From positions 1 through 32,000 of the forward strand of contig NZ_CP021983.2 in assembly GCF_002075285.3 (NCBI RefSeq): a DNA stretch of 32,000 nucleotides, in the 5' to 3' direction. The position numbers and the translations under genes are program-made. Under the pieces are notes generated by a model, which saw only the letters and a list, made by a program, of their open reading frames with translations, searched no databases and was not told where the DNA came from. Shown here piece by piece: positions 1 through 10,468 of this stretch. Source of the stretch: Halomicronema hongdechloris C2206. Its GTDB lineage: Bacteria > Cyanobacteriota > Cyanobacteriia > Phormidesmidales > Phormidesmidaceae. Each line of letters opens with the position of its first letter. The stretch's first letter is position 1.

Positions 1-428
1 GGGTAGGAGTCTGAGATAATCTCACCTAACTACCCGAGAGACCCACTACCGTCATTCCCGCGGCGGCGGGAATCCAGGGAACAAACCTCGGCTTTGGCTC
101 AGAGTACTCTGCCTGGATTCCGGGTCGCGCTGCGCTTGCCCGGAATGACGGGATTCGGTTTCGCGGTAAGTCTGCTACCTCGAGAGACGGTAGTGGTCTG
201 AGATCATCTCACCTAACTACCGTCTTTTCGGCCAGCAGAACTTTGTCGGGAATGTGGAGGACAATGGGGTGGGTGGTCATGGTGCAATTCACCTTTGCAG
301 ACACTTCTATTATCGCGGTGCGGGCATCAGGGACTTAAGGATTGAATAAGCTCTGATGCTTCAGAGATAGGTACGTTAGGCGAGAGCAAGCATCTGGAGG
401 CAGACAAATGGGGATGGGGCGATCGCAA
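1..428. repeat. Copy 1 of a 428-bp direct repeat (partner at 1522-1949)
   Basis: Positions 1-340 are base-for-base identical to 1522-1861 (offset 1521). Positions 341-428 align ungapped to 1862-1949 with about 11 mismatches, and similarity stops after GGGGCGATC. The repeat contains a MITE copy, the 5' fragment of the split UPF0175 gene, the upstream box and a relic start (ATGGGGATGGGGCGATCG versus ATGATGATGGGGCGATCT at the CHAT gene). Confidence 0.9.
3..221 (+). mobile_element. 219-bp MITE-like non-autonomous element, long form, copy 1
   Basis: Identical to 1524-1742. The window begins only 2 bp to its left, so the left flank cannot be seen. GTCTTTTCGG follows at 222-231, as in copy 2. Confidence 0.6.
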
Positions 429-476
429 CACGGGTTCATGACTCGACTAGGGCGATCATCGCTTTTGCATGCAAGG

Positions 477-1235
477 CTATGATTCTTTAGATAAATAGGG
501 CTGTAGCTCTGCGGCTAGCCAAGGCATCGGTGGTGCTTGTTCATAATCAATAAAGTAGTCATAGCCGAGCTGTTCGTAGAGTTCGCTCAACAAAGATTGC
601 ACATTCAATAAAACATCTTCATCTTCTGGCCCCAGAGGCAGGGGAACTGCCGGAATCACATCAGACACGTTGAAGGCGTATAAATCTGCCAGCGGCCGCT
701 GTGGGGCTCGGCTGACCAAGATGCGATAATGACTTTGAGCCACATCTGGTTCCATCAAAAACGGCTGCCCTGCCCGCAGCAAATCAATCTCAACTAAGTG
801 CGTTTGACTACCCAGAATCTGCTGTCGTTTGGCCATATATTTACTGCGACCCTCACCTCTTTTATTAGCTGGCGACAGTACCTCAAGCACGGTGACAACA
901 ATCTGGGTGGCTGCATCTTTCACTTCTAGGTAAGACTGCTGCATTTCCATCGGGACTGGCACTCTGACTTTAACGGGGTGCCCTGTTGCCTTGGGCGTCG
1001 TGGCAATTGGGGTAGGATTAGTCTGTCGTTGCTGAATGCTGACGTCAGGTCGACCCATCGCCACGGTAAGCGCGTCGGTAACGGTATAAACCCACTTATC
1101 GGTGACCACTCGATATTTGGGCAGCAGTTGAGGCACAAGACGCCGAGCGATCGCGGCCACCAGCTGGTTATGGAAGTCTGACCAGTAATCAGGCTGTTCC
1201 AGATACGGATTCATTCCTGGGAAAGGATTGGGCAT
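477..1235 (-). CDS. DUF4058 family protein (PD-(D/E)xK, restriction-endonuclease-like, relative of Uma2)
   Basis: 252-aa ORF. The N-terminus MPNPFPGMNPYLE..W.DFH and the LEVLSPANK (E-x-K type) motif are what I recognise as DUF4058. The family name is from memory and was not searched. Confidence 0.7.
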   Translation of the reverse strand: MPNPFPGMNPYLEQPDYWSDFHNQLVAAIARRLVPQLLPKYRVVTDKWVYTVTDALTVAMGRPDVSIQQRQTNPTPIATTPKATGHPVKVRVPVPMEMQQSYLEVKDAATQIVVTVLEVLSPANKRGEGRSKYMAKRQQILGSQTHLVEIDLLRAGQPFLMEPDVAQSHYRILVSRAPQRPLADLYAFNVSDVIPAVPLPLGPEDEDVLLNVQSLLSELYEQLGYDYFIDYEQAPPMPWLAAELQPYLSKES

Positions 1236-1320
1236 GAGGGGGAGGGCGATCTCGTATGTCTATGATACTGTTGCCCATTTAGCCCGTTGCAGTACCGTAG
1301 GCTGGGCCTTGGAAATGGCC

Positions 1321-1801
1321 TTAGGCAAGGGACTGCTCCAGGTCTTCGAGTTCTGCACTCAAGGGGCAGACGTGGTATCGCTCCAGGCTGAGCAAAAATT
1401 CAACCCGCGACATCCCAGCTAACTCTGCGGCCCGCCCAGAAGACAAGCGCCCCAGTTCGTACAGTTTGACCGCTGCCAGCATAGGCAGTTCGCGGGCAAA
1501 CCCTGCAGCGTCGGTCTTTTCGGGTAGGAGTCTGAGATAATCTCACCTAACTACCCGAGAGACCCACTACCGTCATTCCCGCGGCGGCGGGAATCCAGGG
1601 AACAAACCTCGGCTTTGGCTCAGAGTACTCTGCCTGGATTCCGGGTCGCGCTGCGCTTGCCCGGAATGACGGGATTCGGTTTCGCGGTAAGTCTGCTACC
1701 TCGAGAGACGGTAGTGGTCTGAGATCATCTCACCTAACTACCGTCTTTTCGGCCAGCAGAACTTTGTCGGGAATGTGGAGGACAATGGGGTGGGTGGTCA
1801 T
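1321..1801 (-). pseudogene. UPF0175 family antitoxin-like HTH gene interrupted by a MITE
   Basis: On the minus strand, ATG at 1801-1799 opens MTTHPIVLHIPDKVLLAEKT (1801-1743). The 219-bp insertion follows. The same frame then continues DAAGFARELPMLAAVKLYELGRLSSGRAAELAGMSRVEFLLSLERYHVCPLSAELEDLEQSLA, with stop TAA at 1323-1321. The joined 83-aa product has the LYE.G.LS.G.AAELAGMSR.EF signature typical of UPF0175. An internal ATG at 1482-1480 could still give a 53-aa C-terminal product. Confidence 0.75.
1524..1742 (+). mobile_element. 219-bp MITE-like non-autonomous element, long form, copy 2, with 10-bp target-site duplication
   Basis: The element is bounded by a perfect direct duplication GTCTTTTCGG (1514-1523 and 1743-1752), and removing it restores the UPF0175 frame. 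Both ends carry the palindromic core TGAGAT-N-ATCTCA followed by ACTACC, giving imperfect terminal inverted repeats (GTAG..TGAGATaATCTCA..ACTACC). Internal hairpins are ATTCCCGC-ggcg-GCGGGAAT and ATTCCGGG-N14-CCCGGAAT. It contains no ORF. Confidence 0.75.
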
Positions 1802-1862
1802 GGTGCAATTCACCTTTGCAGACACTTCTATTATCGCGGTGCGGGCATCAGGGACTTAAGGC

Positions 1863-1892
1863 TTGAATAAGTTCTGATGCTTCAGAGATAGG
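1863..1892 (+). promoter_or_regulatory. Conserved upstream box, copy upstream of CHAT gene 1
   Basis: tTGAATAAGTTctgatGctTCAGAgATAgg. The same ungapped pattern occurs at 6230-6259 and 9862-9891, with a diverged relic at 342-371. The box ends 38 nt before ATG 1929. TTGAAT looks like a -35 element, but the -10 assignment is ambiguous. Confidence 0.5.
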
Positions 1893-1928
1893 TACGTTAG
1901 GAGAAAGCAAATATCTGGAGGCAGAAAC

Positions 1929-4484
1929 ATGATGATGGGGCGATCTCAGGCAAGTGGAATGCTGGCAATGATGCTGGTCGTCATGGGTACAGAATTACCT
2001 GTAGCTGCAACCGCTTCGGAACCTGCCGCTCTCATCGCCCAAGAACCCGAACCAGACGCCACGGCCCCCCTGGAGCGAGCCGAAGCGCTTAACCAGCAGG
2101 TGATTGAACTCTACCAAGCGGGACGGTATCAAGAGGCCATTCCCCTGGCAGAAGAAGCCTTAGCCATTCGGCGCCAGCAATTAGGAGAGCGCCATCCCGA
2201 TGTGGCCGCCAGCCTCAACAACCTGGCAGCGCTGTATGAGGCCCAGGGGCGCTATGGCGAGGCCGAGCCCCTCTATCAAGAATCCCTAGCCATTCGGCGC
2301 CAGCAGTTAGGAGAACGCCATCCCGCTGTGGCCCAAAGCCTCAACAACCTGGCATTGCTATATGTTGCCCAGGGGCGCTATGGGGAAGCCGAACCCCTAT
2401 ATCAAGAATCCCTCGCCATTCGTCGCCAGCAGTTAGGGGAGCGCCATCCCGATGTCGCCAGCAGCCTCAACAACCTGGCAGGGCTATATGTTGACCAAGG
2501 GCGCTATGGCGACGCCGAGCCCCTCTATCAAGAATCCCTAGCCATTCTGCGCGAGCAGTTAGGGGAGCGCCATCCCGATGTGGCCGCCAGCCTCAACAAC
2601 CTGGCCGCGCTGTATTATGCCCAGGGGAAAACCGCTCAGGCGGTGCGCAGCTTCCAGGCAGGCTTGGCCATCGAAGAGTGGCACCTGGAGATCAACCTGA
2701 CGACGCTGACAGAGGCCCAACGCCAGGACTACGCCGCCACCCTCTTCGGCACTACGGATGCGGCTATTTCCCTGTCGCTGCAATCGGCAGAGGCGCCACC
2801 CCTGGGGCTGACCACGTTGCTGCGGCGCAAGGGTCGCCTGCTGGAGGCGGGCAGCAGCAGTCTGCAACGCCTGCGCCAGAACCTCACGCCTGAAGACCAG
2901 ACCCTGCTAGACAACCTCATTGATGTGCGTCAGCAACTGGCAGCCCTCACCTTCAATCCCCCGGAAAACCTGCCACCGGAGGAGTACCGATCGCAACTCG
3001 CTGCCCTGGAACAGCAGGACAGTGACCTATCTGCCACCCTGGCTCGTCGCAGTGCTGTATTTCGAGTAGAAGCCGAACCCGTAGAGATTGCCGCAGTACA
3101 GGCCCAGATCCCAGCCGATGGGGTGCTGGTGGAATATGCCCGCTATCACCCCTTTGATGCTAAAGCTAATCCAGCTAACCGCTGGGGTGACCCTCGCTAT
3201 GCGGCCTACCTCCTCTTCCCCAATGGCCGCATTGAAGCCATCGACCTGGGCGATGCCGCTGCCATTGACACTGCCGTGCAAGCCTTCACCACCCTGCTGC
3301 AAGACCCCCGCGCCGACCTACGGGGCGATCCCGCCACCATCATCACCGAGATTGACCCCGACCGGATTGAGACGGTGACCAGCACCCTGCAGGCCCTGGT
3401 GTTGGATCCGATTGCACCCTATTTAGAGGGCCGTGAGCATCTGCTGATCTCTCCCGACAGCCAGCTCAACCGCCTGCCCTTTGAGGCCCTGCAGACGGAC
3501 GATGGTCGTTATCTGGTGGAGCAGTATCAAATCAGCTATCTCAACAGCGGTCGTGACCTGCTCAAATTCGACGTCCTAGATCCCAGCACAGCGCCCGCTG
3601 TCATTCTTGCCAATCCTGATTATGAGCAAGCCGCCCCTCGACTCCGCTCGGGGCTCGACTCGGTAACTGGAAGCTCCCCGAGCGGAGTCGTTGGCGAAGC
3701 TGCTCCGAAGGAGCTAGAGAGCCGGGGCGAGCAGTCGTCGAGCGGAGTCGAGCGGTCGTCGAGCGGAGTCGAGACGAACCGCCGCTCCACCGACCTCAGC
3801 CAACTTCAGGTCGAACCGTTACCCGGCACCGCCGCCGAAGCCGGAGCCATCCAACCCCTACTCCCCAACGCCACCGTCCTCACCGAAGACCAGGCCACCG
3901 AAAACGTGCTCAAGACCGTGCAGGCTCCCCGCATTCTCCACATCGCCACCCACGGCTTCTTCTTAGAAGATCAACCCATTCCAGTCGCCGAGGAGAGTCG
4001 TGGCCTCAGCCTGGCCGCGGCTGACGGGCTGCGGGCACTGCCCCGCTTAACGGCCCCGGTGGAAAATCCCCTGCTGCGCTCGGGTCTGGCCCTGGCCGGA
4101 TTCAACGCCCGCAGCAGCGGTGACGAAGACGGGGTCTTTACGGCTCTGGAAGCCGCTAACCTCAACCTGTTTGGCACCCAGCTGGTCGTCCTCTCTGCCT
4201 GCGATACCGGCTTAGGGGACATTGCCAATGGCGAAGGGGTCTATGGTCTACGGCGGGCCTTTGCCATCGCCGGGGCCGAGACCCAGTTGATGAGCCTCTG
4301 GCAGGTGAGCGATACCGGCACCCAGAGTCTGATGGCGCGGTACTACGAAAAGCTGATGGCGGGTATGGGCCGCAGCGAAGCCCTGCGGGCGGTGCAGCTC
4401 GAGATGATCCGCGAAGGTGGACAGTATAGTCGGCCCTACTACTGGGCGGCCTTCATCCTGGCAGGAGACTGGCGGCCGCTTTAG
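1929..4484 (+). CDS. TPR-repeat CHAT domain protein (caspase-fold protease), probable signal peptide
   Basis: 851-aa ORF. GGAGG lies 7 nt upstream of the ATG. The N-terminus has a hydrophobic stretch, GMLAMMLVVMG..VAATA. Four 42-aa kinesin-light-chain-type TPR units follow (LAIRRQQLGERHPDVAASLNNLAALYEAQGRYGEAEPLYQES). The C-terminal CHAT domain has an intact His/Cys pair (HIATHGFF, VVLSACDTGLG) and the tail YYWAAFILAGDW. Confidence 0.9.
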   Translation: MMMGRSQASGMLAMMLVVMGTELPVAATASEPAALIAQEPEPDATAPLERAEALNQQVIELYQAGRYQEAIPLAEEALAIRRQQLGERHPDVAASLNNLAALYEAQGRYGEAEPLYQESLAIRRQQLGERHPAVAQSLNNLALLYVAQGRYGEAEPLYQESLAIRRQQLGERHPDVASSLNNLAGLYVDQGRYGDAEPLYQESLAILREQLGERHPDVAASLNNLAALYYAQGKTAQAVRSFQAGLAIEEWHLEINLTTLTEAQRQDYAATLFGTTDAAISLSLQSAEAPPLGLTTLLRRKGRLLEAGSSSLQRLRQNLTPEDQTLLDNLIDVRQQLAALTFNPPENLPPEEYRSQLAALEQQDSDLSATLARRSAVFRVEAEPVEIAAVQAQIPADGVLVEYARYHPFDAKANPANRWGDPRYAAYLLFPNGRIEAIDLGDAAAIDTAVQAFTTLLQDPRADLRGDPATIITEIDPDRIETVTSTLQALVLDPIAPYLEGREHLLISPDSQLNRLPFEALQTDDGRYLVEQYQISYLNSGRDLLKFDVLDPSTAPAVILANPDYEQAAPRLRSGLDSVTGSSPSGVVGEAAPKELESRGEQSSSGVERSSSGVETNRRSTDLSQLQVEPLPGTAAEAGAIQPLLPNATVLTEDQATENVLKTVQAPRILHIATHGFFLEDQPIPVAEESRGLSLAAADGLRALPRLTAPVENPLLRSGLALAGFNARSSGDEDGVFTALEAANLNLFGTQLVVLSACDTGLGDIANGEGVYGLRRAFAIAGAETQLMSLWQVSDTGTQSLMARYYEKLMAGMGRSEALRAVQLEMIREGGQYSRPYYWAAFILAGDWRPL
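3639..3775 (+). repeat. In-frame palindromic and tandem repeat block inside the CHAT gene 1 linker
   Basis: A perfect 15-bp inverted repeat, CGACTCCGCTCGGGG (3639-3653) / CCCCGAGCGGAGTCG (3676-3690). A small hairpin GCTCC-gaa-GGAGC. A 21-bp tandem duplication GTCGTCGAGCGGAGTCGAG(cg/ac) at 3734-3754 and 3755-3775. GAGCGGAGTCG occurs three times. The block encodes the low-complexity stretch SPSGVVGEAAPKELESRGEQSSSGVERSSSGVET. Confidence 0.7.
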
Positions 4485-4507
4485 GCCCGGTTAGACGATG
4501 GCTTTCA

Positions 4508-4593
4508 AAAATGACGGTAGTAGGTCTCTCGAGGTAGCAGACTCATCACGCAAACAATCCTGGTCATGCCGGGCAAGCGCCCACACCTCACCC
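4508..4593 (-). repeat. Short-form member of the same palindromic repeat family
   Basis: AATGACGGTAGTAGGTCTCTCGAGGTAGCAGACTCATCACGCAAACAATCCTGGTCATGCCGGGCAAGCGC is the reverse complement of the segment GCGCTTGCCCGGAATGACGGG..GTAAGTCTGCTACCTCGAGAGACGGTAGTGG found in the long-form element. It lies 24 bp after the CHAT gene 1 stop. Confidence 0.6.
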
Positions 4594-4640
4594 AGCAAGA
4601 AAATGCTGTAACAATGGAGATGTCGCTTTAGGGGCAGATC

Positions 4641-4964
4641 ATGTACCAAACCGATCCTCCTCGACCGGCCCAGGAAACGCTGCCGACAATGTACGATTTG
4701 CCCAGCGACAATCCAGAGGAGCCAGGGTTGCCGGACGTTGGCGTCAGCCCGTCGCGAGACGTATTTCACGACATGCAGCCCCAGCTGCTGAAAGAGACCT
4801 GCCGACTCCCTGATGAACTGGCGGACAATGTCTTCTGCGGTACCGATCTAAATCTGTACTATGACACTCACCATCCCCAGTGGTACAAGCGCCCCGATTG
4901 GTTTTTGGTGCTGGGAGTGCCTCGGGCAAAACAGCAGCGAGATCTGCGCCTCAGCTATGTCATA
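4641..4964 (+). pseudogene. Uma2 (DUF820) family endonuclease, 3'-truncated
   Basis: TLPTMYDLPSDNPEEPGLPD..FHDMQPQLL..GTDLNLYYD..HPQWYKRPDWFLVLGV..DLRLSYVI matches the conserved N-terminal half of cyanobacterial Uma2 proteins. The catalytic half (E-x-K region) is absent. Homology stops at 4964 and the frame then runs through tandem repeats to a stop at 5078. VGVSPSRDV looks like a small extra insertion relative to the usual PDEFHD. Confidence 0.7.
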
Positions 4965-4981
4965 AGACTATGGTGGCTGGG

Positions 4982-5075
4982 TTCGCGGGCGTGGAAGCTT
5001 TGTTCGCTACTCTGGAAGGTTCCTTCGCGGGTGTGGAGGCTTTGTTCGCCACTCTGGAAGCTTCCTTCGCCGCCA
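4982..5075 (+). repeat. 42-bp tandem repeat, about 2.2 copies
   Basis: TTCGCGGGCGTGGAAGCTTTGTTCGCTACTCTGGAAGGTTCC starts at 4982, 5024 and 5066 (the last copy is partial), with 4 mismatches between full copies. In one frame it reads FAGVEALFATLEGS, repeated. Confidence 0.85.
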
Positions 5076-5077
5076 TG

Positions 5078-5258
5078 AACCAAACCTCCATCAATGAAAA
5101 TCTCTAGTCGCATAGACAAAATACTTGGTCAGAGGCCACTAACCAAACCTCCATCAATGGAAACCTTTAGTCGCATAGATAAAATACTTGGTTAGAGGTC
5201 GCGAACCAAATCTCCATCAATGCAGACCTTTAGTCGCATAGATAAAATACTTGGTTAG
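5078..5258 (+). repeat. 63-bp tandem repeat, 3 copies
   Basis: AACCAAACCTCCATCAATGAAAATCTCTAGTCGCATAGACAAAATACTTGGT.. starts at 5078, 5141 and 5204. The whole unit is repeated, and only about 10 nt at the unit junctions vary. Each unit contains TAGA(T/C)AAAAT and is bracketed by AACCAA..TTGGTT. Confidence 0.85.
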
Positions 5259-5382
5259 GCAGCGCCAATGACCCCTGCAGCGACGGTGAAGCTTAGGATG
5301 GCAGGATGAACTAAGGGTCTGGCGCTGCTGGAAAAGGGATACGCTTCCTGTTGCTAAGGTAATCCGGTGACGAATCCTGGCA

Positions 5383-5991
5383 TCATGCCTTGAGGATCAG
5401 GTCATAGCGGTTGCACTCATGCACTCGGCTAAACCGTTGTTGAATTTCTGGAACAGATTCCCCACGATACTGAGCAAAGACATGAATGGGCCTCAAACCA
5501 GGAATGCGACTGCCAAGGCACCCATCCACTTCATCATCTTGCAGGTAGACGTGGAGATAGGTGTCTACTTTCTGAAAGCCCTGGGCTTCGTACCACCTTA
5601 GCGTTGAGGCATCGTCGCGGGTCCAGGCTTCGAAGCGTTGGATGTGGGACTGTTGGGCCATGGCAATGGCCACCTTCAACAGCGCTGTTCCAACCCCCCG
5701 TCGTCGATAGTCCGGATGAACCGCAATATTCCAGATCATCCCGGCTTTGCCCGTCGCGGTTGAATGTTTTGGGGGTGAGCAGACACTACCGGGTACCGTT
5801 TCACATTCGACATCGATGAGGCCAATGATGTGCTGGTCGAGTGTGGCAACCAGTTCAATTGATGGATTGGAGTAGTGTTCCTTCTGCCGCAGCACATTGT
5901 CGAAGTAGGCCGTGTCCAAGAAGGCCAGGACCCGGCAGCGCAGCCACTGGGGTTCATCAGCGGGTTGATAGCGGCAAATGCTCCAGTCCAT
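5383..5991 (-). CDS. GNAT family N-acetyltransferase
   Basis: 202-aa ORF with the acetyl-CoA binding motif IAVHPDYRRRGVGTALL and the downstream WYEAQGF, typical of GNAT. Confidence 0.85.
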   Translation of the reverse strand: MDWSICRYQPADEPQWLRCRVLAFLDTAYFDNVLRQKEHYSNPSIELVATLDQHIIGLIDVECETVPGSVCSPPKHSTATGKAGMIWNIAVHPDYRRRGVGTALLKVAIAMAQQSHIQRFEAWTRDDASTLRWYEAQGFQKVDTYLHVYLQDDEVDGCLGSRIPGLRPIHVFAQYRGESVPEIQQRFSRVHECNRYDLILKA

Positions 5992-6046
5992 AACGGTTCA
6001 GCGAAAATACACCTACCCTATTGCCTCACCCTGCCATGGACACTTT

Positions 6047-6115
6047 CCGCACGAAAAAGAGTTCCGTCATTCCGGGCAAGCACAGCGCGACCTGGAATCC
6101 AGTAGAGGGCTCTGC
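6047..6115 (-). repeat. Short or degenerate member of the palindromic repeat family
   Basis: CCGCACGAAAAAGAGTTCCGTCATTCCGGGCAAGCACAGCGCGACCTGGAATCCAGTAGAGGGCTCTG matches the reverse complement of the long-form right half and the copy at 9250-9310. Weaker similarity may continue to about 6180. Confidence 0.55.
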
Positions 6116-6229
6116 AGTCGATAGACATCTCTAAAGCCTCGCCGCGCAGAGAATGGCTGAAGTTCGGTGCATCACACCTCGCGGTGATAGCCCTCTACCC
6201 TCCTTATCTCTGCCAAAATTCATCCAATC

Positions 6230-6259
6230 TTGAATAAGTTTCCCCGGCTCAGACATATA
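6230..6259 (+). promoter_or_regulatory. Conserved upstream box, copy upstream of CHAT gene 2
   Basis: tTGAATAAGTTtccccGgcTCAGAcATAta. It ends 23 nt before ATG 6281 and 38 nt before the alternative ATG 6296. That 38-nt distance equals the one at CHAT gene 1. Confidence 0.5.
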
Positions 6260-6280
6260 GGCTGATGTAAACTCCCCAGG

Positions 6281-9154
6281 ATGGAGCAAGCTCCCATGCA
6301 CTACCCGGCCAAGCTACTGAGTTTAGTGGCTCTTACAACTTTGGCAATGACGACTGTCCAGTTACCAGCCTTTTCTCAAGAACCGAGAGATGCTTACCGT
6401 CTAGCGGCGACTGAGACAAAAACTGAGACGAACCAAGCCAACGAGCAAGGGACTTTACTGCTTGAGGTAGAAGGCATTTTAGAAGTAGGGGATAATACTC
6501 TTGAAAGCGGGAGATTGATTGATGGTCATCAATTTGAAGGGCAGGCTGATCAAATAATCACTATACGCCTTACTAGTGATGAGTTTGATCCGTTTCTCGC
6601 TGTTTTGGAGCCCAGCGGGCAAGTACTTGGTAGTCGAAATAACATAAGTGTATCTAATCTTAATGCTGCTTTGACTATCAGATTACCTAAAAGTGGCACA
6701 TACTTAGTCGGCGTAACTATAGGCTCAGATGACATAAGCGCACAAGGCCAATATCGACTGACTGTAGCTGAGGCAACTACAACGGAAATAAGCAAAGCAG
6801 AAGCTGAACGCTTACTTCAGCTTGGAATTGAGCAATATCAGACTGCTCGACTCCGAGAAGCTATACAGTCATGGGAACAAGCCCTCATTACTTATCGTGA
6901 GATTGACGATCGCCAAGGGGAAGCCGTCGTTCTGGGAAACTTGGGCGTTGCTTATCGTGATTTGGGTGACTATCAGCAGGCTATCAATCTCCATGAGCAA
7001 GCGCTTTTTATTTTCCGTGAAATTGGCAATCGCTTCGGAGAAGTTAGCTCCCTACTTAACTTAGGCGGCGATTACGAAAGCCTAGGCAACTATCAGCAAG
7101 CTATAAACCTACATGAGCAGAGTCTCACCATAGCCCGCGAAATCAATGATCGCGCTGGGGAGGGTAACTCTTTGCGCGGCTTGGGCGCTGCTTATCGTAA
7201 CTTAGGTCAATATCAGCAAGCTATCGAATTCTATGAGCAAAGTCTTGCCATTATCCGCGAAATTGGTGACCGCCTAGAAGAAACTCGCGCCCTATTAGGT
7301 TTGGGAGTTACTCACTATGATCTCGGTAACTATGAAAGGGCCATTGAATTCTATGAGCAAAGTCTTGCCATTATCCGCGAAATTGGTGATCGCCTAGAAG
7401 AAGCTCGCGTCCTCGGGAATTTGGGTAATGTTTCTAGGACCCTGGGTCAATATCGGCAAGCTATTGATCTCTATAAACAGCGTTTAACTATCGCGCGCGA
7501 AATTGGTGATCGGCCTGGTGAAGCCGCAGCTCTACTTGGTATGGGCAACACTTATAGTAAGCTAGGCAACTATGAACAGGCTATTGACCTCTACAGGCAA
7601 AGCCTTGCTATTACCCGCGAAATTGGCGATCGGCCTGGCGAAGCCATGTCTCTTCATAACCAGGGTTTGACCTTTATGAATACAGGCCAACTTCCCCAGG
7701 CAGAATCAGTGTTGCGTCAGTCCATAGAAGTCTTTGAATCCCTCCGCACAAACCTTCCCGATAACCAGCTCATCTCTATCGCCGATACCCAGGCAAGGGC
7801 ATACGCTAACCTAGAGCGTGCCTTAACTGCCCAAGACAAGACAGCTGAAGCCCTTGCCATTACTGAGCGAGGCCGGGCTCGTGCATTTGTGTTGCAGCTG
7901 GCCAGTCGCCTAGCCACTCCAGAAGAGCAGGCGGCCCTGGCCGATAGCCCTATTGCTGAGGCTCCTACCGTCGCTGAGATCCAACAGATCGCCCGCAACA
8001 CCAACACCACTCTGGTCACCTACTCCCTCATCTTCGACCAGGCCCTCTATATTTGGGTGGTGCAGCCGTCGGGGGAGATTCAATTTCGCTCGGTCGAGTT
8101 CAATGGCGCTGGCGGTTCTGGGGTGGTGGTCAATCCCATTGCCGCCATTGATGGCCCGGTCTATCGAGGCACTGACGACCCGTCCGAGTTAGATAGCCTG
8201 GTGGCTGACTCCAGGGCTGGCATTATTGTCGAGCGCACGGGAACCAATCCAGCCCAACTGCAGGAGCTGCATCGGGTCTTGATCGAGCCCATTGCCGCTC
8301 TATTGCCCACCGATCCAGAAGAGAAAGTAGCCTTCATTCCCCAGGGCAACTTGTTTTTGGTGCCCTTTGCCACCCTACAAGACGACGACGGCACGGCCCT
8401 GATCGAAAAACACACTATTCTGACTGCTCCGTCGATTCAGGTCTTCGGCTTGGCCAATGACGTCAGTGGGGAGCCAACAGATGTCAGTAGCTCCCTAAGC
8501 GCCAGCGGCGATGGCGCCCTGATTGTGGGGAATCCAGTGATGCCGACAGTGTGGGCCCCTACGGCCAGCGGTGACTTTGGCGAAATTCAACTGGCGGACT
8601 TGCCAGGGGCTAAACGAGAGGCGGAAGCCGTGGGCGATGTCTTTGGGGTGCCAGTGCTGACAGGCAATCAGGCCACTGAGGCCACCGTAAAGCAACGGTT
8701 GCCAGCAGCCCAGCTGATTCATCTGGCTACCCACGGTCTACTGGAATATGGCGACCCCCAATCCTCTGGGGTTCTGGACGTGCCCGGTGCCGTGGCCTTA
8801 ACGCCCGGGTCAGGGGAAGACGGCTTGCTCACCGCTGCCGAAATCCTGGAAATGAAGTTGCAGGCGGAGTTGGCAGTGCTCAGTGCTTGCGACACCGGGC
8901 GCGGACGCATCACTGGCGATGGCGTGGTGGGGCTGTCTCGGGCCTTGATCACTGCCGGCGTCCCCAGTGTGATTGTGTCCCTGTGGGCGGTGCCCGATGC
9001 CCCTACGGCCATGCTAATGACGGAGTTTTACCGCCAGCTAGACCAAGGGCACGACAAGGCTCAGGCCCTACGGCAGGCCATGTTGATCACCCGGGAGCAG
9101 CATCCTAATCCCAGGGCTTGGGCCGCCTTTAGCCTCATGGGGGCTGCGAATTGA
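6281..9154 (+). CDS. PPC-domain / TPR-repeat / CHAT domain protein (caspase-fold protease), probable signal peptide
   Basis: 957-aa ORF. An alternative start at ATG 6296 has GGAG 9 nt upstream. The signal-like stretch is KLLSLVALTTLAMTTVQLPAFS. A pre-peptidase C-terminal-like beta domain follows (GDNTLESGRLIDGHQFEGQADQIITIRL..DPFLAVLEPSG..GTYLVGV..GQYRLTV). About ten 40-aa TPR units follow (GNLGVAYRDLGDYQQAINLHEQALFIFREIGNRFGE). The C-terminal CHAT domain has HLATHGLL and AVLSACDTGRG. Confidence 0.9.
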   Translation: MEQAPMHYPAKLLSLVALTTLAMTTVQLPAFSQEPRDAYRLAATETKTETNQANEQGTLLLEVEGILEVGDNTLESGRLIDGHQFEGQADQIITIRLTSDEFDPFLAVLEPSGQVLGSRNNISVSNLNAALTIRLPKSGTYLVGVTIGSDDISAQGQYRLTVAEATTTEISKAEAERLLQLGIEQYQTARLREAIQSWEQALITYREIDDRQGEAVVLGNLGVAYRDLGDYQQAINLHEQALFIFREIGNRFGEVSSLLNLGGDYESLGNYQQAINLHEQSLTIAREINDRAGEGNSLRGLGAAYRNLGQYQQAIEFYEQSLAIIREIGDRLEETRALLGLGVTHYDLGNYERAIEFYEQSLAIIREIGDRLEEARVLGNLGNVSRTLGQYRQAIDLYKQRLTIAREIGDRPGEAAALLGMGNTYSKLGNYEQAIDLYRQSLAITREIGDRPGEAMSLHNQGLTFMNTGQLPQAESVLRQSIEVFESLRTNLPDNQLISIADTQARAYANLERALTAQDKTAEALAITERGRARAFVLQLASRLATPEEQAALADSPIAEAPTVAEIQQIARNTNTTLVTYSLIFDQALYIWVVQPSGEIQFRSVEFNGAGGSGVVVNPIAAIDGPVYRGTDDPSELDSLVADSRAGIIVERTGTNPAQLQELHRVLIEPIAALLPTDPEEKVAFIPQGNLFLVPFATLQDDDGTALIEKHTILTAPSIQVFGLANDVSGEPTDVSSSLSASGDGALIVGNPVMPTVWAPTASGDFGEIQLADLPGAKREAEAVGDVFGVPVLTGNQATEATVKQRLPAAQLIHLATHGLLEYGDPQSSGVLDVPGAVALTPGSGEDGLLTAAEILEMKLQAELAVLSACDTGRGRITGDGVVGLSRALITAGVPSVIVSLWAVPDAPTAMLMTEFYRQLDQGHDKAQALRQAMLITREQHPNPRAWAAFSLMGAAN

Positions 9155-9184
9155 AGAGCGCTTTGTAAGCAGCCGATATGGTCT

Positions 9185-9310
9185 CCCTGGATTCCTGCTG
9201 CCGCGGGAATGACAGTAGTACGTTTATTGCGAGCAGCAGACTAATCGCGAAAAAGAATTTTGTCATTCTGGGCAAGCGCAGCACCACCCAGCCTCCAGTA
9301 GAGGGCTCTG
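9185..9310 (-). repeat. Short-form member of the palindromic repeat family
   Basis: CCCTGGATTCCTGCTGCCGCGGGAATGACAGTAGTA..GCAGCAGACTAATCGCGAAAAAGAATTTTGTCATTCTGGGCAAGCGCAGC..CCAGTAGAGGGCTCTGG. It has the same module order as the 4508 copy. The degenerate CTGAGATATAGG and CTGAGATCAC motifs at 9371-9412 may belong to it. It starts 31 bp after the CHAT gene 2 stop. Confidence 0.6.
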
Positions 9311-9861
9311 GGGCCAGTAGCAAGCTGGCAACCAGCCAGCTCAATCGGCCTCGGGTGAATAGGTTCGACCTGCTGAGATATAGGAACCTTTAGAGCACAC
9401 AACCTCTGAGATCACAGCCTACTGTCACCTATCGATAGTGGCCATGGCCTAGGTCCATCCAGCCTACAGGGTGATCCATCTATGAACTCCCATCAGGTCA
9501 GGAATCATGCCCCCATTTAATCAGGTGCCCTACCTCCGTCAACTGTTGAGAAGAATCGCAGCGGCTTCAGGGTTACTGGTATCAGCAGACGGCGTCCCCT
9601 GACTCCCTTGCGGTGCAGGTGCCCAATGGGTCGTCAGTCGGAGGGTTAGGAGTGCTGGGCCTATGGTTTCTGGGGCAACGGCTGCTGCAGGCTGGCGTCT
9701 CAGAACACTGAATCTTAGACCTTGGCTAAACCTTTTAAGAAGTAAGAGTCAAAGCAGGTACCGGGGACGGCTTCACTGTAATATCGCGTTTGTCAGGTAG
9801 CTTCTCCGGTTTTAGGGCATTGGACGCTACGTTCTGTCGTTTTTTCCACCAGAGTGCAAGA

Positions 9862-9891
9862 GTGAATAAGTTCATCGGCCTCAGAGATATA
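9862..9891 (+). promoter_or_regulatory. Conserved upstream box, copy upstream of the YbjN-like gene
   Basis: gTGAATAAGTTcatcgGccTCAGAgATAta. It ends 36 nt before ATG 9926. Confidence 0.5.
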
Positions 9892-9925
9892 CCCCTATGA
9901 CGTTACCCGACATCTTCTAAACATC

Positions 9926-10468
9926 ATGAAAAAAACAATCCCCAGCTTACTTGCCCTGACCACTGCCACCGTTGGCCTGGTCCTATGGCAACCCCACCTG
10001 GTCCCGGTCTCTGTGGCTCAGGTCACCCCCCAGCAAGACAGTTCCCAGGGTAGTCCCGACCCGAGAGTGCAAGCTGCCCTCGATGGTCTGGGCTTCAACT
10101 ACGAAATTCAAGATAGCGGCGCCTTTAGAATCGGGCTGCGCTTCGAAGACGGACGCACCCAGGTAGCCTTTATTAGCTCTGGCACTAGCACCCTGGGCGA
10201 TTTGGAAATCCGAGATATTACCTCGCCAGTTAACGTTACCGATGGTCCTCTATCGGCCGAGACGGCTAACCAGCTGTTACAGGATAATGCCAGCAAAAAG
10301 TTAGGGGCCTGGCAGACGGTTGAACTCAGCGATCAACGCCATCTCACCATGTTTACTGCCCGCATCGATGCCAATAGCAGCCCCGAGCAACTACAGTCTG
10401 CTCTCTATGGGGTGCTCTACACTGCCGATGCCATGGAAGCCGAGCTCTCCGACAGCGATCGCTTCTAG
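9926..10468 (+). CDS. Secreted YbjN-like (type III secretion chaperone-fold) protein
   Basis: 180-aa ORF. The signal peptide is MKKTIPSLLALTTATVGLVLW..VSVA-QV. The body, LDGLGFNYEIQDSGAFRIGLRFEDGRTQVAFI..LLQDNASKKLGAWQ..ADAMEAELSDSDRF, resembles the YbjN family pattern, including the C-terminal D.F. The family call is from memory. Confidence 0.55.
   Translation: MKKTIPSLLALTTATVGLVLWQPHLVPVSVAQVTPQQDSSQGSPDPRVQAALDGLGFNYEIQDSGAFRIGLRFEDGRTQVAFISSGTSTLGDLEIRDITSPVNVTDGPLSAETANQLLQDNASKKLGAWQTVELSDQRHLTMFTARIDANSSPEQLQSALYGVLYTADAMEAELSDSDRF

Follow-up and report, generated by a model that had tools for sequence, protein, structure and literature searches.

IS1 forms cointegrates with directly repeated IS copies, and Tn9 is an IS1-flanked composite transposon. 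Tn6645 is flanked by ISAba3-like copies of the IS1 family and has 8-bp duplications (PMC6382973). Among bacterial MITEs, MITEAba12 is tied to ISAba12 by shared ends and duplication length (PMC6382973); a 187-nt Microcystis MITE has ISL3-type ends (PMC11448079), and Nezha is a further cyanobacterial MITE (Zhou et al. 2008, as cited in PMC6382973). Single-ORF cyanobacterial IS of the IS1 family, ~1.22 kb long, are found in Acaryochloris marina plasmid pREB1 (NC_009926, 267369-268588) and in plasmids pMB01, pMB03 and pMB05 of Acaryochloris sp. ‘Moss Beach’.

The window, i.e. the whole stretch of 32,000 nt that we analysed, is the start of the 5,577,845-bp chromosome of Halomicronema hongdechloris C2206 as identified by exact protein matches. 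Sequence comparisons support the reading that in this window a non-autonomous transposable element has landed in a UPF0175 gene and duplicated its target site. Very probably, the element is a 220-bp IS1-type composite that was moved by an IS1-family DDE transposase acting in trans and was inserted in an orphan UPF0175 gene. The class of event, disruption of a cyanobacterial toxin-antitoxin gene by a MITE, is ordinary, and comparable cases exist (PMC6382973, PMC11448079); the architecture, with direct end modules and a composite permuted interior, is mildly unusual. The finding leaves existing knowledge of transposition unchanged and is of value mainly for annotation.

Like the IS-tied bacterial MITEs, this is a small non-coding element that folds strongly and stands between the two copies of a direct duplication; it has the ends of an IS family and belongs to a kind that can land in genes. 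Unlike them, it appears to derive from IS1, its terminal modules are direct, and it holds a permuted hairpin repeat captured from the host, together with internal 8-bp repeats. The likeness to IS1 composite transposons and cointegrates is that two direct IS1-type units bracket a passenger, with a short target duplication outside; here, in contrast, the units are no more than end remnants of 33 bp, around a passenger of 154 bp of repeat DNA, which makes the structure miniature and non-autonomous.

The interrupted gene and its neighbours are located as follows.

477-1235, XM38_000010, DUF4058 gene (exact protein match)
1321-1513, minus strand, 3′ part of the split UPF0175 gene (codons ~21-83 and stop)
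1514-1523, left target copy GTCTTTTCGG, of which 1514-1522 (9 bp) is probably the real duplication
1743-1752, right target copy GTCTTTTCGG (by sequence identity)
1743-1801, minus strand, 5′ part of the split UPF0175 gene (codons 1-20; ATG at 1801-1799)
1929-4484, XM38_000030, CHAT/TPR gene (exact protein match)

The minus strand of 1801-1743 encodes MTTHPIVLHIPDKVLLAEKT and that of 1513-1321 encodes DAAGFAREL…EQSLA*. Deletion of 1514-1742 (229 bp) joins MTTHPIVLHIPDKVLLAEKT in frame to DAAGFAREL…SLA and gives an ORF of 83 codons, with neither stop nor frameshift. The rejoined protein matches the UPF0175 family of Pfam (PF03683) with E = 8.9e-24 and 83.4 bits, where the curated cut-off is 27.9; the match runs unbroken across the junction, from profile position 1 to 73 of 75, and with such a full-domain match above the curated threshold the protein belongs to UPF0175. 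In a large protein collection 4171 homologues were found with E <= 1e-5, and PF03683 is present in all of the best 120 of them. Intact homologues are 83-87 aa long (many exactly 83 aa), those of 83 aa align with the rejoined protein from end to end, and identity reaches 93% at 100% coverage; residues K19, D21 and A22 beside the junction are invariant in the alignment. Both the profile search and the homologue search thus bear out the original prediction, made from the sequence alone, that removing the insert fuses the flanks into an 83-aa UPF0175 protein.

Uninterrupted DNA for comparison was found in three relatives (L013, L008 and L010), where the sequence GCCGAAAAGAYYGAYGC is unbroken across the insertion site. 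The comparison with empty sites proposed in the original prediction therefore succeeded at homologues, rather than at the orthologous locus. Being small, lacking a transposase and carrying a target-site duplication verified against these empty sites in homologues, the insert fits the description of a MITE in these respects.

In relative L013 the antitoxin gene is followed by a DUF3368 toxin gene that overlaps the antitoxin stop (L013 4417-4902). No DUF3368/PIN-like toxin partner is present in the window at 1236-1320, 3′ of the antitoxin; homology to the relatives ends ~17 nt past the antitoxin stop, and the DUF4058 gene comes next. Judged by gene content, the interrupted UPF0175 gene is an orphan or a decayed module. 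Since the toxin partner is already gone here, loss of the antitoxin should be harmless; the insertion would have struck an already orphaned antitoxin, which fits with its being tolerated. The current annotation has in this place a 53-aa ORF, XM38_000020, that starts at an internal ATG (1482) of the 3′ fragment; its product is an exact match to ASC69076.1 and is unique in the genome. The published proteome table lists zero peptides for XM38_000020, while both neighbouring genes have peptides. XM38_000020 can be re-described as the tail of a transposon-split UPF0175 antitoxin, rather than as a distinct hypothetical protein.

Between the two gene parts the element has five segments, in which Z denotes a hairpin repeat also found elsewhere in the window.

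1523-1555, plus strand, end module U1 (GGTAGGAGTCTGAGATAATCTCACCTAACTACC), a 33-nt near-palindrome with a match to the IS1-like inverted-repeat consensus
1556-1563, left copy of the inner 8-bp direct repeat CGAGAGAC, which is single in uninterrupted Z at 4511-4537
1564-1701, plus strand, passenger DNA: right half of Z (1564-1614), TTGG (1615-1618) and left half of Z (1619-1701)
1702-1709, right copy of CGAGAGAC (by alignment with Z)
1710-1742, plus strand, end module U2 (GGTAGTGGTCTGAGATCATCTCACCTAACTACC), a direct repeat of U1 (30/33) that matches the IS1-family terminus

The outer repeat GTCTTTTCGG stands at 1514-1523 and 1743-1752 with 219 bp between, and a third copy is at 222-231; these three copies compare with 0.05 expected per 32 kb, and none of 100 shuffles reached three. 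By comparison with relatives, GTCTTTTCGG is target DNA, because it encodes AEKT in intact homologues and because in the related IS copies the sequence beyond the terminal …CTACC is unrelated. The opposite case, in which GTCTTTTCGG would be a part of the element itself, was ruled out on these two grounds; the copy at 1-340 has the string only because it shares 121 bp of flank.

The duplication is at most 10 bp long. Its final one or two G's could equally open the element (GGTAG…), and the insert is 219-221 bp depending on the parsing; the 8-, 9- and 10-bp parsings all remove the same 229 bp. From a single insertion the length of the duplication can be stated only as 8-10 bp. The 9-bp parsing is favoured because U2 starts with GGTAG right after its inner flank and IS ends start with GGTAG as well; the element is then probably GGTAG…CTACC, 220 bp (1523-1742), with the 9-bp duplication GTCTTTTCG. 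Of the original prediction of a 10-bp duplication with precisely defined length, the perfect repeat around a 219-bp insert stands, whereas a length of exactly 10 bp is not established.

The IS1-like inverted-repeat consensus has two strong matches in the element (26/29 each, at 1527-1555 and 1714-1742), both in the same orientation. U1 matches this consensus at 26/29 positions as a right end and at 20/29 as a left end, and over 31 nt it is 97% identical to the right end of the L002 IS. Each U module is nearly palindromic (GGTAG … TGAGATnATCTCA … CTACC), which is why U1 read from the left mimics a left end at only 20/29. The palindromic subterminal cores TGAGAT-N-ATCTCA described in the original prediction are located at 1533-1545 and 1720-1732. 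Inverted parts of the element are confined to GGTAG/CTACC and this 13-nt core, while the 33-nt modules are direct repeats. A left end that reads as an inverted repeat at only 20/29, combined with 26/29 ends in the same orientation, is atypical for a MITE and counts against the proposed reading.

The last 23 nt of the element (TGAGATCATCTCACCTAACTACC) match IS1-family ends at 22/23; the lone mismatch is the palindrome centre, C in the element and A or T in the IS copies. When the end query TGAGATNATCTCACCTAACTACC (with N at the palindrome centre) was scanned against one genome per prokaryotic species, seven cyanobacterial contigs were matched and every match was the end of an IS. Four IS copies in one metagenome-assembled genome have >140 nt in common inside the IS and diverge right after CTACC. 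The right boundary of the element can be fixed to the base at 1742, because it coincides with the terminus of IS1-family elements elsewhere. This exact coincidence, together with the empty sites in homologues, upholds the original prediction of a MITE insertion with a target-site duplication.

Complete copies of the related IS are ~1.22 kb long, have inverted repeats GGTAGTTAGGTGAGATWATCTCAGCCCCC and encode either one 368-aa protein or two frameshifted ORFs. In the Acaryochloris plasmids the RefSeq name is ‘IS1 family transposase’, the NCBIfam IS1 model matches the IS transposase with E = 8.8e-18, and homologues of the transposase carry PF03400 and the JGI IS1 label. The element resembles these IS in its termini (GGTAG…TGAGATNATCTCA…CTACC), in the right-end 23 nt (22 of which match) and in its inner 8-bp repeat, equal to their duplication length; it differs in having no transposase, a length of 220 bp versus 1.2 kb, direct end modules and an interior of unrelated host repeat DNA. 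With a right end at 26/29 to the consensus and terminal 23 nt at 22/23 to annotated IS1-family copies, derivation from IS1 is supported. This gives a name to the cognate family, and with it to the likely mobiliser (an IS1-family transposase), although the window itself encodes no transposase (tblastn, best E = 3), as the original prediction had said. Its statement that the element has no ORF does not hold, as a 35-aa ORF lies inside at 1615-1722; the exact sequence of this ORF product is absent from the protein collection.

Clean 8-bp target duplications (ATAGCGTC, CTTCCTCC and CGATGGTT) flank three full IS copies, other copies being without duplication. All three informative IS copies thus have 8 bp, the length of the inner CGAGAGAC repeat, while the outer repeat of the element has 8-10 bp with 9 favoured; this difference is a second point against the proposed reading. 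A third is that cognate IS with matching ends were found only in other genera. For H. hongdechloris, the genome paper reports ISsaga matches to the IS1 family, with regions near 1.556 Mb and 2.92 Mb, and an insB gene (XM38_014610); the end motifs were not found in the partial ISsaga/insB sequences of its supplement, and the best 120 homologues of the Acaryochloris transposase include none from H. hongdechloris. A metagenome scan with a U-specific 24-mer gave no match, a metagenome scan with a relaxed pattern gave five IS ends and no MITE-sized pair, and a search of the element against plasmids gave no match. In A. marina pREB1, a solo right-end inverted repeat (L006 3332-3397) was observed next to a full IS1-family copy, at 8 bp from its left end; this full copy has two frameshifted transposase ORFs and no target duplication.

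The repeat Z, a family of nested GC-rich hairpins of ~150 nt with modules GTCATTCC…GGAATCCAGG, occurs directly after or before CHAT-domain genes. Three copies lie outside the element.

4510-4580, minus strand, uninterrupted partial Z copy with the ‘empty’ site CTACCT-CGAGAGAC-CTACTACCGTCAT
6052-6114, minus strand, partial Z copy, left hairpin only (repeat alignment)
9171-9310, minus strand, near-complete colinear Z copy (repeat alignment)

Short GC-rich nested intergenic hairpins beside gene ends (at 4.5, 6.1 and 9.2 kb) make Z similar to REP/BIME-like repeats, from which it differs in that neither a RAYT-type gene nor an Rfam match was found. A comparison with ~60 kb of contigs of related cyanobacteria gave no copy of Z.

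The 154 bp between U1 and U2 open and close with CGAGAGAC, and they are a circular permutation of Z: once the halves are swapped at TTGG (1615-1618), the interior aligns colinearly with the Z copies. Local alignment scores are 113 in the permuted versus 67 in the native order with Z at 9.2 kb, and 91 versus 68 with Z at 4.5 kb, where shuffles score about 15 ± 2.5. The Z copy at 4511-4537 has a single CGAGAGAC and can stand for the empty state of the inner junctions. The flanks of the two U modules are swapped, with gtcttttcg-U1-cgagagac on one side and cgagagac-U2-gtcttttcg on the other. Because the interior is permuted Z bracketed by the 8-bp direct repeat CGAGAGAC, the element is composite by its sequence organization.

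As the simplest history we propose that an end module was inserted into Z repeats with 8-bp duplications, so that the inner CGAGAGAC copies would be footprints of earlier insertions. Two U modules would then have ended up on either side of a stretch made of the right half of one Z and the left half of its neighbour, forming a composite of two direct 33-bp modules derived from IS1 ends (U1 and U2) around 154 bp of the local hairpin repeat. Through its outer GGTAG and CTACC termini the U-Z′-U unit may have moved as a whole into the antitoxin gene, between codons 20 and 21, with an IS1-family DDE transposase supplied in trans; repair of the staggered target cut would have produced the 9-bp direct duplication GTCTTTTCG (8-10 bp), and the insertion would have inactivated the UPF0175 gene. 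The insertion itself, the duplication, the in-frame restoration, the IS1-family termini and the permuted Z interior are shown by the sequence; which transposase acted, in what order the steps came and that the composite moves as one unit are what we infer. The two adjacent Z copies, each with a U module, that the composite model needs were not observed.

The same arrangement could have arisen in two steps: a single 33-bp U inserted first with the GTCTTTTCG duplication, and 154 bp of Z-derived DNA with a second U were added later, in which case the 220-bp unit was never mobile as a whole. For the second step, a small circular Z::U donor could have taken part in replicative transposition of U, as in an IS1-type cointegrate, or a resident U could have recombined homologously with the U of a Z::U-derived circle. 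Direct U copies with flanks of the type a-U-b … b-U-a are exactly the topology of a cointegrate or of circle integration, and the circularly permuted Z interior fits as well. We nevertheless regard this origin as unlikely: it calls for a circular donor of ~187 bp, which is physically improbable, no solo U module is seen anywhere in the window, and the composite-transposon route yields an identical structure with ordinary intermediates. The need for the ~187-bp circular donor is the reason for ranking the cointegrate or circle route below the composite route.

The composite build offers a concrete, checkable example of how a new MITE might be assembled, with direct end modules, 8-bp footprints and a permuted host repeat. 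More tentatively, and with some doubt on our part, the element could be described as a ‘micro-composite transposon’, in which two direct 33-bp fused-end remnants of IS1 captured and mobilised a permuted hairpin repeat, or as the product of a miniature IS1-type cointegrate. If true, passengers could be captured by end remnants far smaller than any IS, and this could be one route from host repeats to new MITE families.

A second copy of the element is located at the very start of the window.

1-340, plus strand, second copy: element (3-221), target repeat (222-231), 5′ fragment of the antitoxin gene and upstream region

Window positions 1-340 and 1522-1861 are 100% identical, which takes in the element and a further 121 bp on its right side; past 340 the two sequences still agree at ~90% up to ~430, after which they no longer match. 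Since the copy at 1-340 shares the same right flank, it is on sequence grounds a duplication or gene conversion of the whole locus rather than an independent transposition, and it is the only other element copy seen in the window, which documents one insertion event. That no independent copy with a different duplication was seen is a further point against the proposed reading. The left flank of the copy at 1-340 precedes the first position of the window and so belongs to the opposite end of the circular record. A tandem duplication of a 1521-bp unit was rejected as its origin, as the sequence after ~430 mismatches that after ~1951. The drop in identity at ~340/1861, from 100% to 90%, resembles a boundary of gene conversion or recombination.

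According to the genome paper, a repeat of ~350 bp is present at the scaffold start, at ~1800 bp and at three other sites; this repeat blocked closure of the genome, and the scaffold start had chimeric PacBio reads, poor coverage and numerous repeats. The ~350-bp repeat can now be recognized as the element with its flank. These difficulties, reported exactly here, and the position of the element in a segmentally duplicated region would suit an origin without any transposase, either by microhomology-mediated insertion or template switching or as an assembly artefact in a region hard to assemble. Such an origin is highly improbable given that the right boundary coincides to the base with a known IS-family terminus and that the duplication is perfect and of transposase-typical length, with a conserved ORF exactly restored. 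As to an artefact in particular, the same source states that PCR and Sanger sequencing were used to close and correct the region, and we regard it as unlikely on that account.

Folded as single-stranded DNA, the insert reaches -56.9 kcal/mol (z = -6.25). Such strong predicted secondary structure, along with a perfect duplication that would permit precise excision, could also be expected of a functional intervening or regulatory element (programmed excision, an intron-like RNA or a structured non-coding RNA). We give this explanation very little credence: the ends are IS ends, the disrupted gene is already without its toxin partner, neither recombinase nor transposase is encoded nearby, and a promoter and terminator scan of 1-2000 gave nothing above shuffles, with no promoter-like site. 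The intron or non-coding RNA version was dropped after a search of 1-10000 gave no Rfam family at E <= 1. Insertion of a non-autonomous IS1-type element remains the preferred reading of the locus.

Several further repeats were observed around the element. Positions 400-476 hold the remnant of a CHAT/TPR gene start (SGGRQMGMGRSQHGFMTRL, then a stop; …SGGRQMGMGRSQ…stop), resembling the N-terminus of the paralogue XM38_006810, which belongs to the paralogous locus XM38_006760-006810 near 640 kb. The CHAT protein of the window and XM38_006810 are 98% identical, and a nearby DUF4058 copy is identical over 245 aa; these identities imply that at least 4 kb are segmentally duplicated between the start of the genome and ~640 kb. 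A motif of ~29 nt (CTTGAATAAGTT…CTCAGAGATA) occurs at 341-369, 1862-1890, 6229-6257 and 9861-9889. The copies at 1862 and 6229 are upstream of the CHAT/TPR genes at 1929-4484 and 6281-9154, and the motif may be a shared 5′ regulatory element. Tandem coding repeats of 126 bp (TPR_12 units) and 120 bp are located within these two genes, at 2120-2627 and 6938-7653. An ORF at 4641-5258 with a Uma2-like N-terminus (…TMYDLPSDNPEEPGLPD…) enters 21/42-bp tandem repeats after ~105 codons (4981-5070) and ends in an array of three 63-bp units (5072-5258); a similar array of three 63-bp units at 2,917,694 is given in the genome paper's tandem-repeat table.
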